Of a stretch of 64,000 bases of DNA, positions 2,520-30,422 are shown in pieces (the stretch's first letter is position 1; each line of letters begins with the position of its first letter). Below the pieces are notes generated by a model. That model saw nothing but the letters and a program-made list of their open reading frames with translations, did not search any database and was not told where the DNA came from. The position numbers were made by a program, and so were the translations under genes. Source of the DNA: Escherichia phage vB_EcoM_WFL6982. The stretch is taken from the sequence record MK373774.1; one strand, written 5' to 3'.

Positions 2520-3620
2520 TTACGCTGTGAAGATTTTATCCCACATCGCAACAACTGCATCTCGATTATACTTCTTCCATACTGCTTCAGCACGTTTAAC
2601 TCGAGCTTCGTATGTGTCAGTGAATTCTAATACAGCTTTTGTGTAAAGCGCAACTACTTCTTTCTTAGGAGTAGAGGAATCAATTTCTACACGCACTGTA
2701 TCTGGGTCGTATTCGAATGTCGCATGAGGATAATCCTTAAAAACTAACTGGATTACAGGGACACCTTTAGAGATGGCTTCAATAGAACTATTCTCTACCG
2801 TACCTGTGTCAGGACACGTATTAATAAGTGCTTTAGCTGTTTTAAGACGTTCCATAATTTCACTGTGTGGAGCATCAATAATAACAGGATATTTAGCTGG
2901 TGGTGCCCATTTACTAGGACAGTATCCTGCACCATTTTCGCCTAGTGCTTTAATCGCTTCAAGAGCAACATCAGTACGACGCATTTTAGTGTCATAACGT
3001 TGTGCACTAATAATCAGATCAGTCGCTGGAAGAACTTCAGGTTTCTCATTCAAACAAATAACCGGATAATCTTCGGCTTCAAACAACGGATTTGCTCGCC
3101 AATAATCATAATCAATTTTGTCAGTCAGACCTGAAGTCATATAACAATATTTACGTTCAAATTCACGGAAGGCTTTAGTAGGAGCATAACTCTTACCACC
3201 ATTCTTATGAATTTGAATAGTCTGGTCCCAAATTTGAACAATGCCACGAGATACCGGTTCAAATGGTGTTGCCATAAAATTCTTATGAACTTTAGAGAGA
3301 CCTGCGTCTTTAATTGCCTGAACGGTTAGTTTAGTCGGTTCCATAGTAACAACAAAATCGTATTCATGGATGCCGGCTAGTTCAACAATCTTACGAGCCA
3401 TAGTATAACTCATACCTAGACCGAATTTAGTCAGATGACCAACAGGATGATGATTAACCTTCCAATCACCAAATGTGTCATTATCAAAACCAATATAATC
3501 AATATCGGCACCGATGGACACAAGATATTTCAACACATTTAAATGTACTGCTTCAAGACCACCTTGTACACGGTCAGGATTAAATGGGACTGCACGAGAT
3601 GGGATAAACATAACTTTCAT
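2520..3620 (-). CDS. putative glycosyltransferase (candidate 5-hmC sugar transferase, arabinosyltransferase-like)
   Basis: 366-aa ORF inserted between rIIA.1 and gene 39 where T4 has no such gene; N-terminus MKVMFIPSRA.. resembles a GT-B-type glycosyltransferase start; phage lacks alpha-gt/beta-gt homologs. Confidence 0.65.
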   Translation of the reverse strand: MKVMFIPSRAVPFNPDRVQGGLEAVHLNVLKYLVSIGADIDYIGFDNDTFGDWKVNHHPVGHLTKFGLGMSYTMARKIVELAGIHEYDFVVTMEPTKLTVQAIKDAGLSKVHKNFMATPFEPVSRGIVQIWDQTIQIHKNGGKSYAPTKAFREFERKYCYMTSGLTDKIDYDYWRANPLFEAEDYPVICLNEKPEVLPATDLIISAQRYDTKMRRTDVALEAIKALGENGAGYCPSKWAPPAKYPVIIDAPHSEIMERLKTAKALINTCPDTGTVENSSIEAISKGVPVIQLVFKDYPHATFEYDPDTVRVEIDSSTPKKEVVALYTKAVLEFTDTYEARVKRAEAVWKKYNRDAVVAMWDKIFTA

Positions 3621-15278: not shown

Positions 15279-15800
15279 TTAGTAACCATTATCCTGACGT
15301 TCAAAGTTGTGTTGGTTTTTCAAGTAGTAAAGTTTAAAGATTTCTTCTGCTGTAAGACCAAGACCCTGGAACATATTCAGAACGAAATGAAGAATATCAA
15401 TCATCTCAAATTTAATTTCAAGCTGGTCTTCAGGAGACAGTTCATCGATACGACGATTTCGATATTCAGCATGTTGTGCTTTCCATGGCTTCCATACACT
15501 GCTGGCAGCTTTTTCACCGTTGGACATACCACCAAGTGAAGTCAGCAGTTCACGGAATTCATCATCAATATAATCTTTCTGATTACGCAGCCAATCAACA
15601 ACATCGCCAGCAGTAGCCAATTCATCAGGATGTTTGTTATGTTCAGGCTTGTCATTTGCCAGACGAACCTGTAAAGATTTCTGCATATCAAGCATTACCT
15701 GCAGTGGGTCTTTATCTTCGTGAATCAGAGCATTAAAATAAGCTTCTTCTGCTTTATCAACACCAGAAATAAGTTGTGAACATTCGTTAAAGTGTGCCAT
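15279..15800 (-). CDS. 56: dCTP pyrophosphatase (dCTPase/dUTPase, MazG-like)
   Basis: start moved to ATG at 15800 (MAHFNE.., AAGGA SD); MazG-type all-alpha NTP-PPase; T4 gp56 position next to soc. Confidence 0.85.
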   Translation of the reverse strand: MAHFNECSQLISGVDKAEEAYFNALIHEDKDPLQVMLDMQKSLQVRLANDKPEHNKHPDELATAGDVVDWLRNQKDYIDDEFRELLTSLGGMSNGEKAASSVWKPWKAQHAEYRNRRIDELSPEDQLEIKFEMIDILHFVLNMFQGLGLTAEEIFKLYYLKNQHNFERQDNGY

Positions 15801-22268: not shown

Positions 22269-22631
22269 TTAAAAGAATTTAAATTTTTTCTTGGTTCGTT
22301 CATTAAAAGCTTGTTGTACTTGCATTGTAACACATTTTTCAACATGTGGTGCAAGTTCTGCTTTTCTGTCCTGGTCAAGAACTGCAAAGTCCATTACGAT
22401 TTTACCATCAACCCAGTCTAGTTTTGTAATATAGACTATATGATGGGAACCGTCTTCAAGTGTAATCAGAATCTCTTGAATGACATTTTCCATTGCTGAA
22501 CGGACAATTTTAAGAGATTCATTAAACACTCGTTCTTTGCGAATGTCCTCCCCTTCCGAAGAAGGGGATTCATCAACGATTTCTAGATTTAAATCATCGA
22601 GATTATTCATCGAAATCTTCCATTTCGTCAA
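22269..22631 (-). CDS. hypothetical protein (gene 40 position)
   Basis: 120-aa ORF between 41 and uvsX where T4 has gene 40; identity not verified. Confidence 0.4.
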   Translation of the reverse strand: MTKWKISMNNLDDLNLEIVDESPSSEGEDIRKERVFNESLKIVRSAMENVIQEILITLEDGSHHIVYITKLDWVDGKIVMDFAVLDQDRKAELAPHVEKCVTMQVQQAFNERTKKKFKFF

Positions 22632-23775
22632 GGTCGTTTTCTATATCTGCTGCAGACGGAGCATCAGAAGTTTTAACCGGAACTTTAGTTGTTGCTTTGC
22701 AATTAATAAGGTCGTTAACAGCGTCATCAACTTCTTTAATAGAAGAGATAGCACCTAGTTTATATTTAGTTTCAATTGCATCTCGGAAAGGTTTGTGTTT
22801 AAACAAAGGTCCCCAGAATTCTACACAATCAGTAGCTTTAGCACGCCACGATTTCTCTTCACGAATCATTTCGCCTGTTTCTTCGTCAAGGAATTCACGA
22901 GCATACCAACCAGCTTTAGGCTTAACTACAAAACCAATTTCAGTTGCCATTTCTAGCAAGCCACTGAATGGGTCGATACCACCATCGAAATTAACCGTGA
23001 TCGGGAAAGTAGATTTCTCTTTAACTGTACGAGATTTTTCTGCTTTCAACGTGAAGTCATAACCGGTCAATTCTGTACCTTCTTTAACCTGACGTTTAGA
23101 GATAAAGAATACAGTGTTAGCAGAATAAAGAATACCTGTACCACCGCCCATAATCTCTTTAGGATACAATCCGCCAATTTCCATTGCGGTATGGTTAATT
23201 GCAACACACGGAATATCTTTAATAGTCAGATACGGGGTCACAATACGGAAAAGAGATTTAAGTGCCTTAGCACGAGACATATCACCTACAACTTTCTCGT
23301 TCAATGCATCTTCAGTTTCTTTCTTAGATGCAGTATTACCGATTGAATCGATAAAGATAATAACTTTATCACCGCGTTCAATCGCGTCAAGCTGATTAGT
23401 CATATCAACTTTAAGTTGTTCGACTGACTGAATTGGTGTATGAACTACACGGTCTAAATCAACACCCATTGAACGAAAATAAGATTCTGAAGCACCAAAT
23501 TCTGAATCATAGAACAAACAAATTGCATCTTTATATTTCTTCATATATGCTGCAACCATAGTTAGTCCAAACAACGTTTTAAAGTGTTTAGAAGGAGCAG
23601 CAAAAATAGTCAAGCCTGATTGCAATCCTGCATTCAGAGCACCACCTAATGCAATATTCAACATCGGAATACGAGTAGGGACTTCATCACGATTATTAAA
23701 CAGCTTAGACTTAGTCAAGTCTGCAGTCATTTTAGAAGTAGAAGCTTTAATCAGACGAGATTTTAAATCAGACAT
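22603..23775 (-). CDS. uvsX: UvsX recombinase (RecA/Rad51-like)
   Basis: 390 aa; MSDLKSRLIKASTSK.. near-colinear with T4 UvsX as recalled. Confidence 0.95.
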   Translation of the reverse strand: MSDLKSRLIKASTSKMTADLTKSKLFNNRDEVPTRIPMLNIALGGALNAGLQSGLTIFAAPSKHFKTLFGLTMVAAYMKKYKDAICLFYDSEFGASESYFRSMGVDLDRVVHTPIQSVEQLKVDMTNQLDAIERGDKVIIFIDSIGNTASKKETEDALNEKVVGDMSRAKALKSLFRIVTPYLTIKDIPCVAINHTAMEIGGLYPKEIMGGGTGILYSANTVFFISKRQVKEGTELTGYDFTLKAEKSRTVKEKSTFPITVNFDGGIDPFSGLLEMATEIGFVVKPKAGWYAREFLDEETGEMIREEKSWRAKATDCVEFWGPLFKHKPFRDAIETKYKLGAISSIKEVDDAVNDLINCKATTKVPVKTSDAPSAADIENDLDEMEDFDE

Positions 23776-23873
23776 TGTATTTTTCCATAGGCATCATTAT
23801 ATTTTACTCATGTTTAAAAGATAAGATGATTATATACTAAGAGTTATACAGCATTTAAAACTTTAAATGGCTC

Positions 23874-24422
23874 TTAACGAGCCCATTTAATGATTTCTGT
23901 AATCAAATTATTACGTTCGCTTGCATTAAATCCTATAACTTTGTTAGAACCATCATGATTAAGTAATTGATACGTTTGGATTTTGTTATGAATTGCAAAC
24001 TCTTCAAAATGTGAAATGACTGTATTAAAACCGAATGAAGACAAAGTAATAAGGTCGTCTTCAAAACTTTCAGTCATTTCGTTACGTGTTAAAATAATTG
24101 TGAACACATCATGGTTTTGGCAAAGACGAACATAATCCTGTTCATAAACGTCAAGAACCGAGTCCGCATCTTGTCGAATACGTCCATAAACCCAGTTACT
24201 AATATATCCACGGTCTAATAGATAAATCTTAGTAGGGTCTAAATAATTCAACATCGTTTCGAAACAGCCAACTTCATTTCGAGACTTAACATCGAAACGC
24301 CCATCAACTGTTCGTTTAGGGAAATCAATCTTTACATATCTTTCACTAATTTCCATTATGTCATTAATGAAAGTTGTTTTACCAGCATTATCCGGCCCGT
24401 CTACTAAAATAATTTTAGCCAT
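23874..24422 (-). CDS. P-loop nucleotide kinase, thymidylate-kinase-like
   Basis: 182 aa; P-loop LVDGPDNAGKTT resembles TMPK GxDGAGKTT; LDRGY resembles the TMPK DRY motif; occupies T4 beta-gt locus. Confidence 0.5.
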   Translation of the reverse strand: MAKIILVDGPDNAGKTTFINDIMEISERYVKIDFPKRTVDGRFDVKSRNEVGCFETMLNYLDPTKIYLLDRGYISNWVYGRIRQDADSVLDVYEQDYVRLCQNHDVFTIILTRNEMTESFEDDLITLSSFGFNTVISHFEEFAIHNKIQTYQLLNHDGSNKVIGFNASERNNLITEIIKWAR

Positions 24423-24423
24423 T

Positions 24424-25323
24424 TTATTCCTCGATTACGACATCTTCGTATTTAGGTATATTATACGGTGAAGAAATTAAAGCATTAAAGTAGATGAACT
24501 CACCAAGACCTGGATGGAATACTTCTTCAGGATTTTCGAAATATTGAATCTTCGGACGTCCTTTAAGAATTTGATAGTACTCAGTTTTAGTTGGATTAAA
24601 AATTCGAATCAGCGCTTCTTCAGGATACTTATTTCTGTCGAAACTATTATTTGGATCAGTTATATAAAGCGGTTGACCTAATTGAATTGCGCATTCAACC
24701 ACTTGTTCAAAACGATAGCATGGGTCACTAATTCGAAATGGATGAAAAATACCATCTAGATGAATAGGAGCCAAATCACCTACAAGACGCTGCATGACGG
24801 AAGGACGTATAACTTTCTGCGTTACGATAATCTTATTACCATCTGCACCTGCGTTAACCAGCACTTCTTTTTGACGTTCATTCAACACAGTAGTTTGAAG
24901 TGAACGATTAACAGACAACATGTCGGTTTTTAAGAATTCATCAATATAAAAACGTGGTTTATTAGGGTCTGCAGTGATATTGAAATTGAATTCTACATCA
25001 AAAGCGCCGTCATATCCAGTGATATCTGTGATTAGAAAATCACAATCATAATAAGCAATTAATGAATCAACCACAAATTCATTTTCAGACCAAAAATATT
25101 TACGAGTGTTATACGCGTTATCTTTATACCATAATGGAACAAACTTAAATTCTGGGAAAAGACGTTCACATTCTTTAATATCAGATGCATTACGTGGATA
25201 TGTAATCACATCACCCGGATTAGCACGGTGCAAATGAAGTTGGAAGTTGCCATCCTTAAGGATAGCATACTGTCCAGTTTCATAAGACCGCATACTCAAG
25301 ATAGGTACGCGGAAAATAGCCAT
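24424..25323 (-). CDS. hypothetical protein at beta-gt locus (function unknown, possible DNA-modification enzyme)
   Basis: 299-aa ORF between TMPK-like gene and gene 42; no recognisable motif. Confidence 0.55.
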   Translation of the reverse strand: MAIFRVPILSMRSYETGQYAILKDGNFQLHLHRANPGDVITYPRNASDIKECERLFPEFKFVPLWYKDNAYNTRKYFWSENEFVVDSLIAYYDCDFLITDITGYDGAFDVEFNFNITADPNKPRFYIDEFLKTDMLSVNRSLQTTVLNERQKEVLVNAGADGNKIIVTQKVIRPSVMQRLVGDLAPIHLDGIFHPFRISDPCYRFEQVVECAIQLGQPLYITDPNNSFDRNKYPEEALIRIFNPTKTEYYQILKGRPKIQYFENPEEVFHPGLGEFIYFNALISSPYNIPKYEDVVIEE

Positions 25324-26039
25324 TAGTCAAGGAATCCTTTAACATAATCAAAATCACGTTCAAACACATGGGCACTTACCATGGTATGAGTATAATCACC
25401 AACTTCTACACCACATTCGTTAGCGATATAATGAAGTAATTTTCCTTGGAGATAAAAATCCAACTGCATAACAACAGCACAGTTCTGGGAACGCATATGA
25501 CAGTGGGTATAAAGCTTACCGTCACGAATATAATAAGTCACTGAGTCAGTACATGGATATTCAAGCGTTTCGTCCGAATCAAGCAAAGCCTGATCAGAAC
25601 TTTCTAGAATTTGGAACACAACTCTTCGGGAGTTAGGCTTCTCTTTAAGTTCTTTTAGAAGAGCTGGTAATTGGGCCGCAATGCGAGGACCATAGAAAGT
25701 GTTGAAGTTCGCCGGCAAAACATCTGATTTTGGTTTAGAAATAAATTTAGCGACATTAGGATATGCCTTAAACGCTTCTTCTGCGTTGGTACCACCAGAA
25801 ATCATAAACTTCCAGAAGTCTTCGGCATATTCATAAGAGATGCGGTTAATACGTGGGTCAGTCATTTTGAATGATGATGGAGTGTCAACAACTACTGTCA
25901 TAGACCCAATTTCATTACAACGTCCAATACGAGAATCAGTTACGAATTCCGGGTTTTCTAAAATTTCACGATTGACTGCTTTAAATGCGGTTTGAAAATC
26001 TGCGGCTTTGATATATTTCATTGTGTTATGTTTTCCCAT
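25323..26039 (-). CDS. 42: dCMP hydroxymethylase (thymidylate synthase fold)
   Basis: 238 aa; TS-like fold with catalytic Cys context (YPCTD); T4 gp42 size and position. Confidence 0.85.
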   Translation of the reverse strand: MGKHNTMKYIKAADFQTAFKAVNREILENPEFVTDSRIGRCNEIGSMTVVVDTPSSFKMTDPRINRISYEYAEDFWKFMISGGTNAEEAFKAYPNVAKFISKPKSDVLPANFNTFYGPRIAAQLPALLKELKEKPNSRRVVFQILESSDQALLDSDETLEYPCTDSVTYYIRDGKLYTHCHMRSQNCAVVMQLDFYLQGKLLHYIANECGVEVGDYTHTMVSAHVFERDFDYVKGFLD

Positions 26040-26081
26040 GTTTACCTCAATACAATTTATTATATACTCAATTCGTAAAGC

Positions 26082-26321
26082 TTATTTGAATTTCTTGACA
26101 ATGTTGATATAACGTAAAGCTTCAGCATCGATACTTCCAAGAACACTATGAAGAAATGCATCAGCGTAGTATTCCAATTGAACAGGTTCTTTAATCACTT
26201 TAGCCGCTTTAGTTTCAAACAGGCCCATAAGGGCCTTTTTAAGAATTTGTTCGTTAGTGTTCAGTTTAATAGTCAAAATCTCTTCATTAAGTTGGTGATT
26301 AAAAGTTTTTCTAGAAATCAT
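26082..26321 (-). CDS. hypothetical protein
   Basis: 79-aa ORF, ATGA overlap with upstream gene. Confidence 0.45.
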   Translation of the reverse strand: MISRKTFNHQLNEEILTIKLNTNEQILKKALMGLFETKAAKVIKEPVQLEYYADAFLHSVLGSIDAEALRYINIVKKFK

Positions 26322-27487
26322 TCCGGGTACCTCAGAGCGTCATCAGAGTTAGTTATATCAATAATAGATATAGAGTTTTCTGCTAACCCGTTTTTAGATA
26401 ATTGACGTTTATAATATCTTTCACAATATGTACACGTTGATCCACAGATTTCATTAGCACAATCAAAATCTGGATGTCTGAACCACCTTTTTTCTAAAAA
26501 GCCATCTAACAAAGAGGTTTCAATATTTACTGTATGTGAAAACTCAGTTTCATTTTCAAGAGTGAAAATAGTCTCTAAAGGCTTCCACAGTTCTAACAAA
26601 TTACCTTCAAACTTTTCAGAAGCGTATGCTTCAAGAACTTTCAAAATGTAGTCTGTGCTACCTGTACGTCCTGAAACTTTGAATTGAGTGATACCAATAT
26701 CATTATAAAGTTTCAAATCTTGAGGACGAACAAAACGAGTTCTCAACCAGTTAAATGGGTCTGTATCACGAGCTTTAATACAGTGCTGCATTGGATATCC
26801 GTTTAAGGATTTAGCATCATCAGCTGTAACATCAGTACTATGGAAAATATAGCAAGAGTCACGATAGCTACAATGTGTTGTATACCCTTTACCAGCGTTA
26901 GAACAGAACTCATTTACAAGAACTTCAAATATTATATTGTTCTTATTGCAAAACTCTGCTGCACGCTTCAGGAAAGAAACTGAACGGTTCTTATGAATTC
27001 CACAGCAGACCTTTTTGATATTGTATTGGTCATGTAAGTATTTTATTTGAGTTACAGCATCGACATGTAGAATTGTTGAAACTTCAATCTCAATGTCTTT
27101 ATTGACTTCACGAACAATTTCCATAACAACAGGGTTAGCGATAGTAATACGCCATACGCCTATTGACCAAAGATACTGAACATAATCCTGAATAGCTTTC
27201 TTCTTCCACTCGACTAGTTCTCTTTTTGAACCAGGATTTATCGTGTTGAGTGTATAGTTAAAGCAAATACCTAATTCGTTACAACGTTTAACGTAATCTT
27301 CTAACATCTTTTTGTCGACGTCAGGAAGCCTAAAATCAGGTCTGGCTGCTACAAAAGCCATTTCTCTTGTAGAGCCGTATACTTCGTTTATCAAGCTATT
27401 AGGATAAGTTTTATTGAGCTCTACGATTTTATCAAGAAGAGCTAAATCAAAATTCGTTCCGATTTTAAAAGTATTCATTTTTTGCAT
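26318..27487 (-). CDS. Cys-rich U32-like (peptidase U32 / putative Fe-S enzyme family) protein
   Basis: 389 aa; IEIEVS..YLHDQYNIKKV and EVLVNEFCSNAGKGYTTHCSY blocks resemble E. coli YhbU-type U32 proteins; C-terminal CANEICGSTCTYC cluster. Confidence 0.45.
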   Translation of the reverse strand: MQKMNTFKIGTNFDLALLDKIVELNKTYPNSLINEVYGSTREMAFVAARPDFRLPDVDKKMLEDYVKRCNELGICFNYTLNTINPGSKRELVEWKKKAIQDYVQYLWSIGVWRITIANPVVMEIVREVNKDIEIEVSTILHVDAVTQIKYLHDQYNIKKVCCGIHKNRSVSFLKRAAEFCNKNNIIFEVLVNEFCSNAGKGYTTHCSYRDSCYIFHSTDVTADDAKSLNGYPMQHCIKARDTDPFNWLRTRFVRPQDLKLYNDIGITQFKVSGRTGSTDYILKVLEAYASEKFEGNLLELWKPLETIFTLENETEFSHTVNIETSLLDGFLEKRWFRHPDFDCANEICGSTCTYCERYYKRQLSKNGLAENSISIIDITNSDDALRYPE

Positions 27488-27533: not shown

Positions 27534-27935
27534 TTATAGATTCGGTTTATATGATTTAAATGTTTCGAATTCGCCTTTATTCATAAGAGCTTTGAATTCG
27601 TCAGGACGCATAGCTTTGTCGTCGATAATCCAATCATATACTGGTTTATGTGTTAGCAAATTATGGTACTTCAAGCCAATGTTTGCCAAGTTCTGAATCA
27701 GACTTGGGAGAATGTCAATTGCTATACGACCAGGACCTACTGACTTCATACCGCGAGCAGTGTAAAGCGTTATGGTATGCCCTGCATCATACAGGGCATT
27801 AATGGCAGACACCATTTCGACGTCTGGTTTGAAGTTCACGTAATCACGATTGTTATTCCACTCTGTTATACAATCATCGACATCAAAACAAAGATTAAGC
27901 ATGTTTTCTACACGGTGCATTAGATTCGTTCCCAT
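27534..27935 (-). CDS. small HAD-superfamily phosphatase
   Basis: 133 aa; HAD motif I FDVDDCIT, motif II T (LYTARG), motif III K...DD (KPVYDWIIDDK). Confidence 0.6.
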   Translation of the reverse strand: MGTNLMHRVENMLNLCFDVDDCITEWNNNRDYVNFKPDVEMVSAINALYDAGHTITLYTARGMKSVGPGRIAIDILPSLIQNLANIGLKYHNLLTHKPVYDWIIDDKAMRPDEFKALMNKGEFETFKSYKPNL

Positions 27936-29605
27936 TGATGAGTGATATCGCCACCGATTGGACGATAAGAAACACCAGTTTCTTTATCAGTTAGTACCCA
28001 TTTACCAGGATTTTTTGTAATCAGAGTAGCCGTTACAGGTTCTGCTACGTCATAACTAATAGAGCCGTCTTGAAGTACACGGCCCATGTTACGTAATTGC
28101 TTAGTCAGAAGTTCCATACCTTTATAATATGCAGCTACCGCTTTAAGTGGATTATTCTTGAAATAACCACCTAATGCAATCCAGATAATTGCCACTGCCA
28201 AATGATGATACTCGTTAAACGAACTCATCTTTCCATATTTGTAAACTAATGGATTGATGTTAATAGTCACATTACAAGTTGTTTCATCAATAGTAAACTG
28301 TCCCCAGGTCGGATTAGCATTGAATTCATCATAACCTGAAACAGCGTAAAGCACTTTAGCTTCATCGTACAATTTTGGCCCGTAAATCTTGGTTTCGCCA
28401 AAATATCCGCGAGGGTCGATAAACTTGACTTCGCCATCATCAGTAATCATAGTATTACTGAAGTTCGGGTCACCATGAATAACAGAGTACTGTCCCTGAG
28501 AACGATTATGATAACGAATAAGGTGTTCTAAAGCTTGTTTCAGCATTGGCTTCAGACGTCCAATCTTAGTGTAGTTCACATGTGTGATTTTACCAAATGA
28601 ATCAATCAATGGTTGAATGCTTTCACAACGATCAATAACTTTCGTATAGAACTCTTTAGTGAAATCACGGCGAACAGTTTCAGGACTTACAAAATACGTG
28701 TCTGTGCTGAATTTCAGTGCATCTAAAATTGCATCAACAATTTGTGGACGAGCAAGACTTGATTTGGATTTAATATATTCAAATGCCGGCTTACCTTTAA
28801 TGCGTTCCATTTCAAAGTTATTTTCATTAACAGAAACTAACTGAGGAACTGAATCTGATTTCACTTTCAAATACCACGAAATCTCATCTTTCTGAAGAGC
28901 TCGTCCCTGTTCGGTTAATGCGAATTTAGTTACAGTTTCTTCACCAATTTCAACTGCATTAAAACTACGATTAAGTTCACGAACTTCATGAGCTTTTTCA
29001 AGTTTAGGCATATCACCTAAATCAATTATATTCATAAGCTCTGATTTATTGAATGCGCCGCTGTAAAGGAATTCTACGAAATCACGTCCTTTGCAGTATT
29101 CATGAATTTCCTCATCGGTAGAACCCATATAGAATTCCCAGTCTTTGAACTGATAAATTCCTACAACATTACCACCTGTTGAACCTACGTTAGTGATATT
29201 TTCACCGTCGAAATTATACCGACATTCGTCACCCTTAACATAGATTGCGTTAACATTCCAAGACCATGAACCAAAATCAGGAATAATATCACACCAGTTA
29301 ACAATTACATTATGGCCGTCTAAATCTTTGTGTAATTTAGCAAGAGCATAAGCAGAACCGTACGCTTCATCAACTGTACGAATAGTCACATTGAACCCTT
29401 CTTGCTCACAATAAGCTCGAACAGTTTCAGCAAATTTTGAATGAACTACTACAATAATTTCATCTGCGCCAAGGTCAGAATAAATTGTATACAAATTGCT
29501 CAGAATAGTGTCTTGTTTATAGTTAACAAGCACCTTAGGAATATGATGCGTTATTGGATATAAACGAGTCGCCAGTCCAGCACCAAGAATAACAGCTTTT
29601 TTCAT
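27920..29605 (-). CDS. bifunctional sugar-1-phosphate nucleotidyltransferase / sugar kinase (APH/choline-kinase fold)
   Basis: 561 aa; N-terminal AVILGAGLATRLYPIT..PKVLV nucleotidyltransferase signature; C-terminal kinase motifs IHGDPNFSN and FIDPRG. Confidence 0.7.
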   Translation of the reverse strand: MKKAVILGAGLATRLYPITHHIPKVLVNYKQDTILSNLYTIYSDLGADEIIVVVHSKFAETVRAYCEQEGFNVTIRTVDEAYGSAYALAKLHKDLDGHNVIVNWCDIIPDFGSWSWNVNAIYVKGDECRYNFDGENITNVGSTGGNVVGIYQFKDWEFYMGSTDEEIHEYCKGRDFVEFLYSGAFNKSELMNIIDLGDMPKLEKAHEVRELNRSFNAVEIGEETVTKFALTEQGRALQKDEISWYLKVKSDSVPQLVSVNENNFEMERIKGKPAFEYIKSKSSLARPQIVDAILDALKFSTDTYFVSPETVRRDFTKEFYTKVIDRCESIQPLIDSFGKITHVNYTKIGRLKPMLKQALEHLIRYHNRSQGQYSVIHGDPNFSNTMITDDGEVKFIDPRGYFGETKIYGPKLYDEAKVLYAVSGYDEFNANPTWGQFTIDETTCNVTININPLVYKYGKMSSFNEYHHLAVAIIWIALGGYFKNNPLKAVAAYYKGMELLTKQLRNMGRVLQDGSISYDVAEPVTATLITKNPGKWVLTDKETGVSYRPIGGDITHQWERI

Positions 29606-29646
29606 GTTGAAGTCCTCATTGGTAAGTAGGAGTATTGTACACTATT

Positions 29647-29790
29647 CTAGTTAAAGCATTCATACTTTGCTTGTAGTCCAATCATAATCCATCCAATTAC
29701 AAGTGTTGGAATCATTACTGGAGCCGTTAAGCTCCAGTAGATAGTCATGACAAACATCAATAGTAAAAGTCCTATTGTTATTGCTTTCAT
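29647..29790 (-). CDS. small single-pass/hairpin membrane protein (possibly Imm-like)
   Basis: 47-aa hydrophobic ORF MKAITIGLLLLMFVMTIYWSL.., ATGA overlap with upstream SIS gene; not in ORF track. Confidence 0.4.
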   Translation of the reverse strand: MKAITIGLLLLMFVMTIYWSLTAPVMIPTLVIGWIMIGLQAKYECFN

Positions 29791-30422
29791 TGTTCGCCTC
29801 GTAACATGGCACCTAGTGCACCGCCTGGATGGAACTTAAGGAAATCATTAGAGGTAAATCCACGTTCAGACGAAAGGTTGATAGCGAACGTATCGATAAG
29901 CGCTAACAACAATGTAGTAGACATTGTCGGAGCTAAAGAGTTCTCGTCAACTTCTACCGCGATACCGGTACAGAACGTATAATCAAAAAGAGCTTCGTAT
30001 TCTTGTGGAATGTCAGGGTTACAATGTAACAGAATCTGTTTAACCTGAGGACGAATCATACGAAGATGTTTAGCAACACCTATCATTTCTTCAGTCTTAC
30101 CAGAACGACTGATGTGAACTAATACATCATTAGGTGCAATAAATCCTGCGTCACCATGAGAATAATGCCCAGTGTTCAAATACATGCTAGGAATACCTAG
30201 TGAAGCAAAAGTCTCGGAAGCTTTAGTTGCGATATTAGCGTTCTTACCAACACCTGTAATAATTACACGACTTTCATAATTACTCAGTCCAGGGCGACGA
30301 AGAGTTTCTAGAATAGCATTATAACGAGCAGGGTTTTGACTAATTACTTTAGCCATAGTGGCAAGAGAAGAAGCTTGTTTTATGATTGCGTCAATAGCGA
30401 TAGTGATTGGTGTAGTTTTCAT
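29787..30422 (-). CDS. SIS-domain sugar-phosphate isomerase, D-arabinose-5-phosphate isomerase (KdsD/GutQ-like, no CBS domains)
   Basis: 211 aa; RVIITGVGKN..HGD..ISRSGKT..LAPTMSTT..HPGGALG aligns block by block with E. coli KdsD SIS domain as recalled. Confidence 0.85.
   Translation of the reverse strand: MKTTPITIAIDAIIKQASSLATMAKVISQNPARYNAILETLRRPGLSNYESRVIITGVGKNANIATKASETFASLGIPSMYLNTGHYSHGDAGFIAPNDVLVHISRSGKTEEMIGVAKHLRMIRPQVKQILLHCNPDIPQEYEALFDYTFCTGIAVEVDENSLAPTMSTTLLLALIDTFAINLSSERGFTSNDFLKFHPGGALGAMLRGEQ

Follow-up and report, generated by a model that had tools for sequence, protein, structure and literature searches.

Two open reading frames (ORFs) lying between uvsX and a thymidylate-synthase homolog in this phage are probably the nucleotide kinase and the first glycosyltransferase (GT) of the module for arabinosyl-5-hydroxycytosine (ara-5hoC) hypermodification that has been published for RB69-like phages. 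We favor this reading because the two proteins are nearly identical to their RB69 counterparts, have matching folds and, in the kinase, matching motifs, share the window (the whole 64-kb stretch of DNA analysed) with the full gene set for UDP-arabinofuranose (UDP-Araf) and a second GT, and keep both company and order with the synthase in other viruses. The pair itself is already known, since proteins 98-99% identical to it have been described (PMC13326640). What the analysis adds is that the synthase gene is accompanied by those of the transferase and the kinase at about 60 diverse viral loci.

Layout of the locus and its RB69 counterparts

The window and Escherichia phage vB_EcoM_WFK (MK373775.1), a Mosigvirus, were 100% identical, with coordinates that coincide, and other Mosigvirus phages, Bas46 among them, were about 99% identical to the window. 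Three genes follow one another on the minus strand: a thymidylate-synthase homolog of the 5-hydroxy-dCMP synthase type (25323..26039); a 299-aa compact GT-B glycosyltransferase (24424..25323; WFK_00043, ortholog of RB69p047+p046), which is a candidate for the first, base-proximal arabinosyltransferase; and a 182-aa P-loop nucleotide kinase with the thymidylate kinase (TMPK) fold (23874..24422; WFK_00042, ortholog of RB69p045). The stop codon of the synthase overlaps the start codon of the 299-aa gene (TAATG), one base lies between the stop codon of the 299-aa gene and the start codon of the 182-aa gene, and uvsX (22603-23775) lies 3' of the kinase gene in the direction of transcription. Both ORFs were intact in about 345 phage genomes and both proteins were conserved down to about 30% identity, which indicates that they are real genes. 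In the region 23600-26400 a scan for sigma-70 promoters stayed at chance level (12 sites against 11.7 expected), and a terminator scan found none. On the minus strand of the intergenic region between the kinase gene and uvsX (23776-23873) we noted AAATGCTGTA, followed after 12 nt by TATAAT, an arrangement that we take to resemble a T4 MotA-box middle promoter.

The gene order in T4 is 43 - imm.1 - imm - 42 - b-gt - segA - uvsX, so that the slot between uvsX and the synthase homolog is the one that segA and beta-gt occupy in T4. The initial annotation had placed the two genes at the beta-gt position between uvsX and a gene-42-like gene, and the T4 order bears this out. It had also linked both genes to DNA modification, and indeed they have their orthologs, in the same order, in the gp45-55-type modification cluster of RB69.

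The kinase shares 98.4% protein identity with RB69p045, the 299-aa ORF matches RB69p047 and RB69p046 over 880/901 nt (about 98% identity), and the synthase homolog is 99.2% identical to RB69 gp48 (RB69p048); as in RB69, the orthologs of RB69p045 and RB69p046:47 sit between uvsX and the thymidylate-synthase homolog. Lee et al. named RB69 gp45 a "nucleotide kinase" and gp46:47 "arabinosyltransferase 1" of the ara-5hoC pathway (Lee et al., NAR 2026, PMC13326640). Both functions are predictions, and we found no substantive difference from the RB69 proteins, except that the 299-aa ORF is intact here and frameshifted in the RB69 record. That record (L003:4598-5498; RB69 24597-25497) splits the transferase into ORF046c and ORF047c by one extra T (TTGTAGTGTGAT in RB69 against TTGTAG-GTGAT in WFK), consistent with the sequencing error to which Lee et al. 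ascribed the split (PMC13326640). Further equivalents of the kinase and the transferase are found in Bas46/47, DLP3 (gp78/gp79) and Thanatos (TH1_064/TH1_063). Phage HY126 (He et al. 2026) reportedly carries equivalent genes as well.

The remainder of the modification cluster extends upstream on the minus strand. A HAD-type sugar phosphatase (27534..27935; RB69 gp51 / HY126 AfhF analog; PHROG 1238, 5e-43) is followed by a bifunctional sugar kinase and nucleotidyltransferase that makes UDP-Araf (27920..29605; RB69 gp52:53 / HY126 AfhE analog), both with roles taken from PMC13326640; the product of the latter gene matched Pfam NTP_transferase (8e-10) and, weakly, APH-type kinases in its C-terminal half. 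An arabinose-5-phosphate isomerase with a SIS domain (29787..30422; RB69 gp55 analog; Pfam SIS 8.5e-10, PHROG 5670 2.7e-116) completes the UDP-Araf gene set (27534-30422). Elsewhere in the window, also on the minus strand, lie a second arabinosyltransferase (2520..3620), a homolog of RB69 gp3 that matched PDB 9iqz/9ir0, "phage HY126 glycosyltransferase", with a phmmer E of 2.6e-249, and a gp56-type dCTP pyrophosphatase (15279..15800; "putative dCTP pyrophosphatase" in MK373775.1), which provides dCMP while keeping dCTP out and has RB69p028 as its RB69 analog (PMC13326640).

Between the synthase and the sugar genes we observed a U32-peptidase-family, Fe-S-type protein (26318..27487, minus strand; Pfam PF01136 7.4e-11), 99.2% identical to RB69p050, which Lee et al. 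labelled only "sugar or heterocycle reductase" (PMC13326640). It is 81.5% identical to TH1_065 of Shewanella phage Thanatos (L007:7462-8598), where the neighbouring modification proteins reach 41-68%, and it has 13 conserved cysteines, including C195/C206/C212/C236 and a C-terminal C-x4-C-x3-C-x2-C. The U32 family includes the O2-independent hydroxylases RlhA, TrhP and UbiU/V, and the phage protein could provide an anaerobic route to the 5-hydroxy base. The gene was absent from the JS98 cluster.

Synthase chemistry and the proposed pathway

The initial annotation had called the upstream neighbour gene 42 and had assumed a pathway of hydroxymethylcytosine (hmC) and sugar; neither survived. The neighbour is only 25% identical to T4 gp42, and it matched a 238-aa chain of PDB 9iqc/9ir2, deposited as thymidylate synthase, with an E of 8e-161. 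We infer that this chain is the HY126 hydroxylase, because the entry for the HY126 glycosyltransferase (9iqz) falls in the same accession series. The protein has the catalytic Cys (C163), MRSQN at 182-186 (the D169N signature; T4 gp42 has MRSND at the corresponding motif) and D194 (the N177D substitution). According to Lee et al., D169N is diagnostic of 5-hydroxy-dCMP synthases, and the catalytic Cys and N177D also belong to the signature (PMC13326640). Judged by these residues, the neighbour is a flavin-dependent 5-hydroxy-dCMP synthase and not a dCMP hydroxymethylase. We therefore rejected the hmC pathway on three grounds, namely the low identity to T4 gp42, the D169N signature and the 9iqc match, and with the near-identity to gp48 the pathway here is that of ara-5hoC.

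Experimental data on close relatives define the product. RB69 gp48 was shown to make 5-hydroxy-dCMP (5hodCMP) with flavin and O2, and mono- and di-arabinofuranosyl-5-hydroxycytosine were detected in RB69 DNA by LC-MS and NMR (PMC13326640). Arabinosyl-5-hydroxycytosine has also been seen by HPLC/MS in virion DNA of Mosigvirus NP. NAD(P)H-FMN-reductase/flavodoxin-like genes (Pfam PF02525 1.7e-13, PF03358 2.7e-15) adjoin D169N-type synthases in two unrelated metagenomic phage contigs (L005:4739-5293; L072:4232-4702, minus strand), in keeping with the reported need of the hydroxylase for flavin.

In the proposed pathway, the gp56-type dCTPase would yield dCMP, which the thymidylate-synthase homolog would hydroxylate to 5hodCMP with flavin and O2, the step shown for the 99%-identical RB69 gp48. 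The 182-aa TMPK-fold kinase would then convert 5hodCMP to the diphosphate, in parallel to the gp1-type dNMP kinase or as its dedicated partner. Host NDK would form the triphosphate, and the phage polymerase would insert 5-hydroxycytosine (5hoC) instead of C. The 299-aa GT-B enzyme would place the first alpha-D-arabinofuranose onto O5 of 5hoC in DNA, with UDP-Araf supplied by the upstream isomerase, kinase/uridylyltransferase and phosphatase genes, and the gp3-type GT at 2520-3620 would add the second arabinose.

Three published results cut against so simple a story for the kinase and the transferase. RB69 gp159, the gp1-type dNMP kinase and like the 182-aa protein a phage kinase of the modified-pyrimidine nucleotide route, converts 5hodCMP to 5hodCDP in vitro, and gp159 and gp48 suffice to put 5hoC into E. 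coli DNA (PMC13326640); this step would thus not obviously call for the 182-aa kinase, for which the initial annotation had suggested a modified nucleotide as substrate. Individual GTs supplied with UDP-Araf or UDP-Arap did not arabinosylate 5hoC-DNA, and Lee et al. left undecided at which level, mononucleotide or DNA, the first sugar is attached (PMC13326640). Thanatos TH1_063, an ortholog 47.5% identical to the 299-aa protein, was reported to have UDP-xylose pyrophosphorylase activity in vitro (Thanatos paper).

Co-occurrence and synteny across viruses

A tblastn search gave 348 phage records for the transferase and 343 for the kinase, and the two sets shared one host-genus profile. We further scanned IMG/VR loci pulled by kinase and transferase alignments, metagenome contigs and Thanatos with HMMs of synthase, transferase and kinase; pattern-based retrieval by the kinase alignment gave only 17 loci, and the GT alignment performed better. 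A D169N-type synthase together with a kinase match was present in 58 loci, a few of which are the same contig re-sampled. Most of them had the order synthase, transferase, kinase, with the GT ORF followed directly by the kinase ORF and usually overlapping it, and this order held even in contigs whose proteins were only 31-38% identical to those of the window. Overlapping or abutting GT and kinase ORFs were seen in Mosigvirus, Thanatos and many metagenomic loci.

The tight pairing can be read in another way, in which glycosylation takes place at the nucleotide level. The 299-aa GT would arabinosylate free 5hodCMP, and the 182-aa kinase would be specialised for the bulky arabinosyl-5hodCMP, possibly no substrate for the gp1-type kinase. 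The triphosphate would then be polymerised with its sugar in place, and only the second and third sugars would be added on DNA. Such a scheme is rather unlikely in our estimate, but it draws on several results: the negative assays on 5hoC-DNA with the question of nucleotide or DNA left open, the coverage of the 5hodCMP step by gp159, which leaves the extra kinase in need of another job, and the abutting ORFs themselves. It also gains from more distant transferase relatives (24-28% identity), which have divergent TMPK-like ORFs beside them (hhalign probability 94-96%); in four such loci (L071, L073, L075, L077) the TMPK-like neighbour occurred with no synthase within 5 kb. Against it, negative in-vitro data can have many trivial causes, and two loci (L072, L074) had synthase and transferase with no kinase within the sequence examined. 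Nor does the kinase always stand beside the GT: in JS98-type phages it lies directly before the synthase, and in some Klebsiella and Proteus phage loci 2-3 kb upstream. To our knowledge, pre-replicative glycosylation has no precedent among phage DNA modifications.

The kinase was also the fastest-diverging member of the cluster, only 39-41% identical where uvsX was 58-90% identical; against the JS98 copy (L008:3655-4191) it reached 39%, with uvsX at 90% and gp43 at 84%. This divergence, together with its shifting place (after the transferase, before the synthase or 2-3 kb upstream; L028-L030, L047-L048), suggests that the kinase gene has been exchanged repeatedly. The divergence argues for a generic, exchangeable nucleotide-kinase role over an obligate complex with the transferase, and for this reason we keep nucleotide-level glycosylation as a low-probability rival. 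That the conserved GT-kinase pair acts on free nucleotides and the polymerase inserts an already glycosylated dNTP is, likewise, improbable; if true, there would be no earlier example of a phage DNA base that is glycosylated before replication.

One metagenomic locus (L005) had the triad and a flavodoxin-like reductase with no sugar-synthesis genes. This locus, and the position of the JS98 kinase directly before the synthase, tie the kinase to the nucleotide rather than to the sugar branch. Lee et al. reported this triad also from Rhizobium phage RL38J1, which uses hexoses as its sugars (PMC13326640).

Two of the metagenomic loci had additional features. In L072 (L072:5452-7107) the transferase forms the C-terminal part of a 551-aa ORF, the N-terminal part of which is presumably HAD-phosphatase-like, by motif alone. 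L074 (L074:3615-6201) has a synthase with MRSQS in place of MRSQN, then the transferase, then a further ORF that we take, by its N-terminal dinucleotide-binding motif alone, to be a UDP-galactopyranose mutase.

The kinase, the transferase and their possible substrates

At the sequence level the kinase matched only PHROG 761 "thymidylate kinase" (1.7e-45). Pfam gave no match to PF02223 at E<=0.1, and in a profile search the P-loop alone matched, the top matches being a repeat artefact from concatenated RecA. Structural matching, on the other hand, revealed a TMPK fold, with dTMP kinases as all of the best matches, in agreement with the initial annotation, which had described a TMPK-like kinase. 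The motifs it had reported were also found, GPDNAGKTT at residues 9-17 and LDRGY at 69-73. The kinase thus keeps the catalytic and acceptor motifs of nucleotide kinases, with the P-loop G9-P-D11-N-A-G-K15-T16 including its Lys, D11 as the equivalent of human TMPK D15, FPKR at 34-37 and D70-R71-G-Y, although R37 of FPKR was present in only 19/24 sequences. R113, a candidate LID Arg, was invariant.

The protein departs from known thymidylate kinases (human, vaccinia and bacterial TMPK; PF02223, TIGR00041) in several respects. Sequence identity to them is 8-19%, they are longer, the P-loop Arg of type-I TMPKs is replaced by Asn (N12), their DRY/H/F is DRGY here, and the distribution of the 182-aa kinase is tied to 5hoC modules. 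Profile comparison to human TMPK aligned only kinase residues 3-40, with the thymine-contacting part outside the alignment; F54 and L58, which were not aligned, may be the equivalents of human TMPK F72 (stacking) and R76 (to O4). Distant relatives next to a transferase homolog (L075, L078-L082; hhalign probability 94% to the kinase family) have the P-loop G-x-D-R-x-G-K-D, with Asp replacing Ser/Thr, and the Asp that precedes the conserved motif Arg is missing from them.

The dTMP kinases at the head of the structural matches, the weak sequence matches to TMPKs and several GenBank records that say thymidylate kinase would suit an ordinary dTMP kinase that raises the dTTP supply of an AT-rich genome and shares only its location with the modification genes. 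This is unlikely: the protein scored 16.9 bits with TIGR00041, the curated dTMP-kinase model, far below the cutoff of 83.25, its alignment to human TMPK is confined to the short N-terminal part, and it occurs almost exactly where the D169N synthase and the GT occur, not in T4-like phages generally. T4 itself has segA in the kinase slot. Moreover, gp1-type kinases already phosphorylate dTMP in T4-like phages.

The initial annotation had found no recognisable motif in the 299-aa ORF. Our searches agreed, with no match in Pfam or NCBIfam, specifically none to Glycos_transf_1 or Glyco_trans_4, no PDB homolog by profile search, and PHROG 3891, of unknown function, as the only match. The fold is GT-B/GT4-like, with two Rossmann-like domains and an inter-domain cleft, and resembles glycosyltransferases including T4 alpha-GT. 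The two Rossmann-like domains are shared with GT4-type retaining GT-B enzymes (sucrose-phosphate synthase 6kih, BshA, PimA, WaaG), which are 60-100 residues longer. Both this fold and the TMPK fold of the kinase reproduce Table 1 of PMC13326640. An invariant Arg, Lys and acidic residue in the C-terminal domain are consistent with NDP-sugar binding. An E-x7-E motif was considered and dropped; E267-x7-E275 is present in the 299-aa protein, but most relatives have K or T at position 267. Homology to T4 beta-gt (GT63) was likewise rejected, as none was detectable. All cluster proteins are acidic, so net charge and pI gave no guide to a DNA or a nucleotide acceptor.

The suggestion that the 299-aa protein is a transferase is thus in line with its GT-B fold, but its description as a second transferase or accessory enzyme does not hold, since the second transferase lies at 2520-3620. 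The beta-gt slot is held by an unrelated transferase for a different base, 5hoC and not hmC, and this transferase is the candidate for the first transfer. If the activity reported for TH1_063 applied here, the 299-aa protein would be a UDP-pentose pyrophosphorylase and the gp3-type GT would carry out all transfers. We consider this very unlikely: the GT-B fold, like that of T4 alpha-GT, differs from that of nucleotidyltransferases, a dedicated NTP-transferase domain is already encoded elsewhere in the cluster, the gene occupies the beta-gt slot, and Thanatos DNA is mono-glycosylated with the 299-aa ortholog as its only GT (Lee et al., PMC13326640).

A substrate other than a free pyrimidine nucleotide is, finally, very unlikely for the kinase. 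It is a P-loop kinase, and other phage hypermodification pathways use DNA kinases (5-hmdU, thymidine hypermodification), so that an arabinose-branch sugar phosphate, the 5-OH or a DNA end could be considered; but D11, FPK(R) and DR, which in TMPK contact the deoxyribose 3'-OH and the 5'-phosphate of the acceptor, are kept, the kinase occurs both in the locus devoid of sugar-synthesis genes and with the hexose-using RL38J1, and the sugar branch has a kinase domain of its own.

The value of the analysis is mainly corrective, in that the beta-gt slot holds an unrelated transferase and the modified base is 5hoC rather than hmC. The remaining interest lies in which substrate the TMPK-like kinase takes and which acceptor the first transferase uses; in the published literature covered, we found no kinase or transferase assay of either protein. 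Since ara-5hoC protects these phages from restriction enzymes, the Brig1 glycosylase and type I CRISPR-Cas, the full set of enzymes that make it matters for phage therapy, phage engineering and the enzymatic synthesis of glycosylated DNA.
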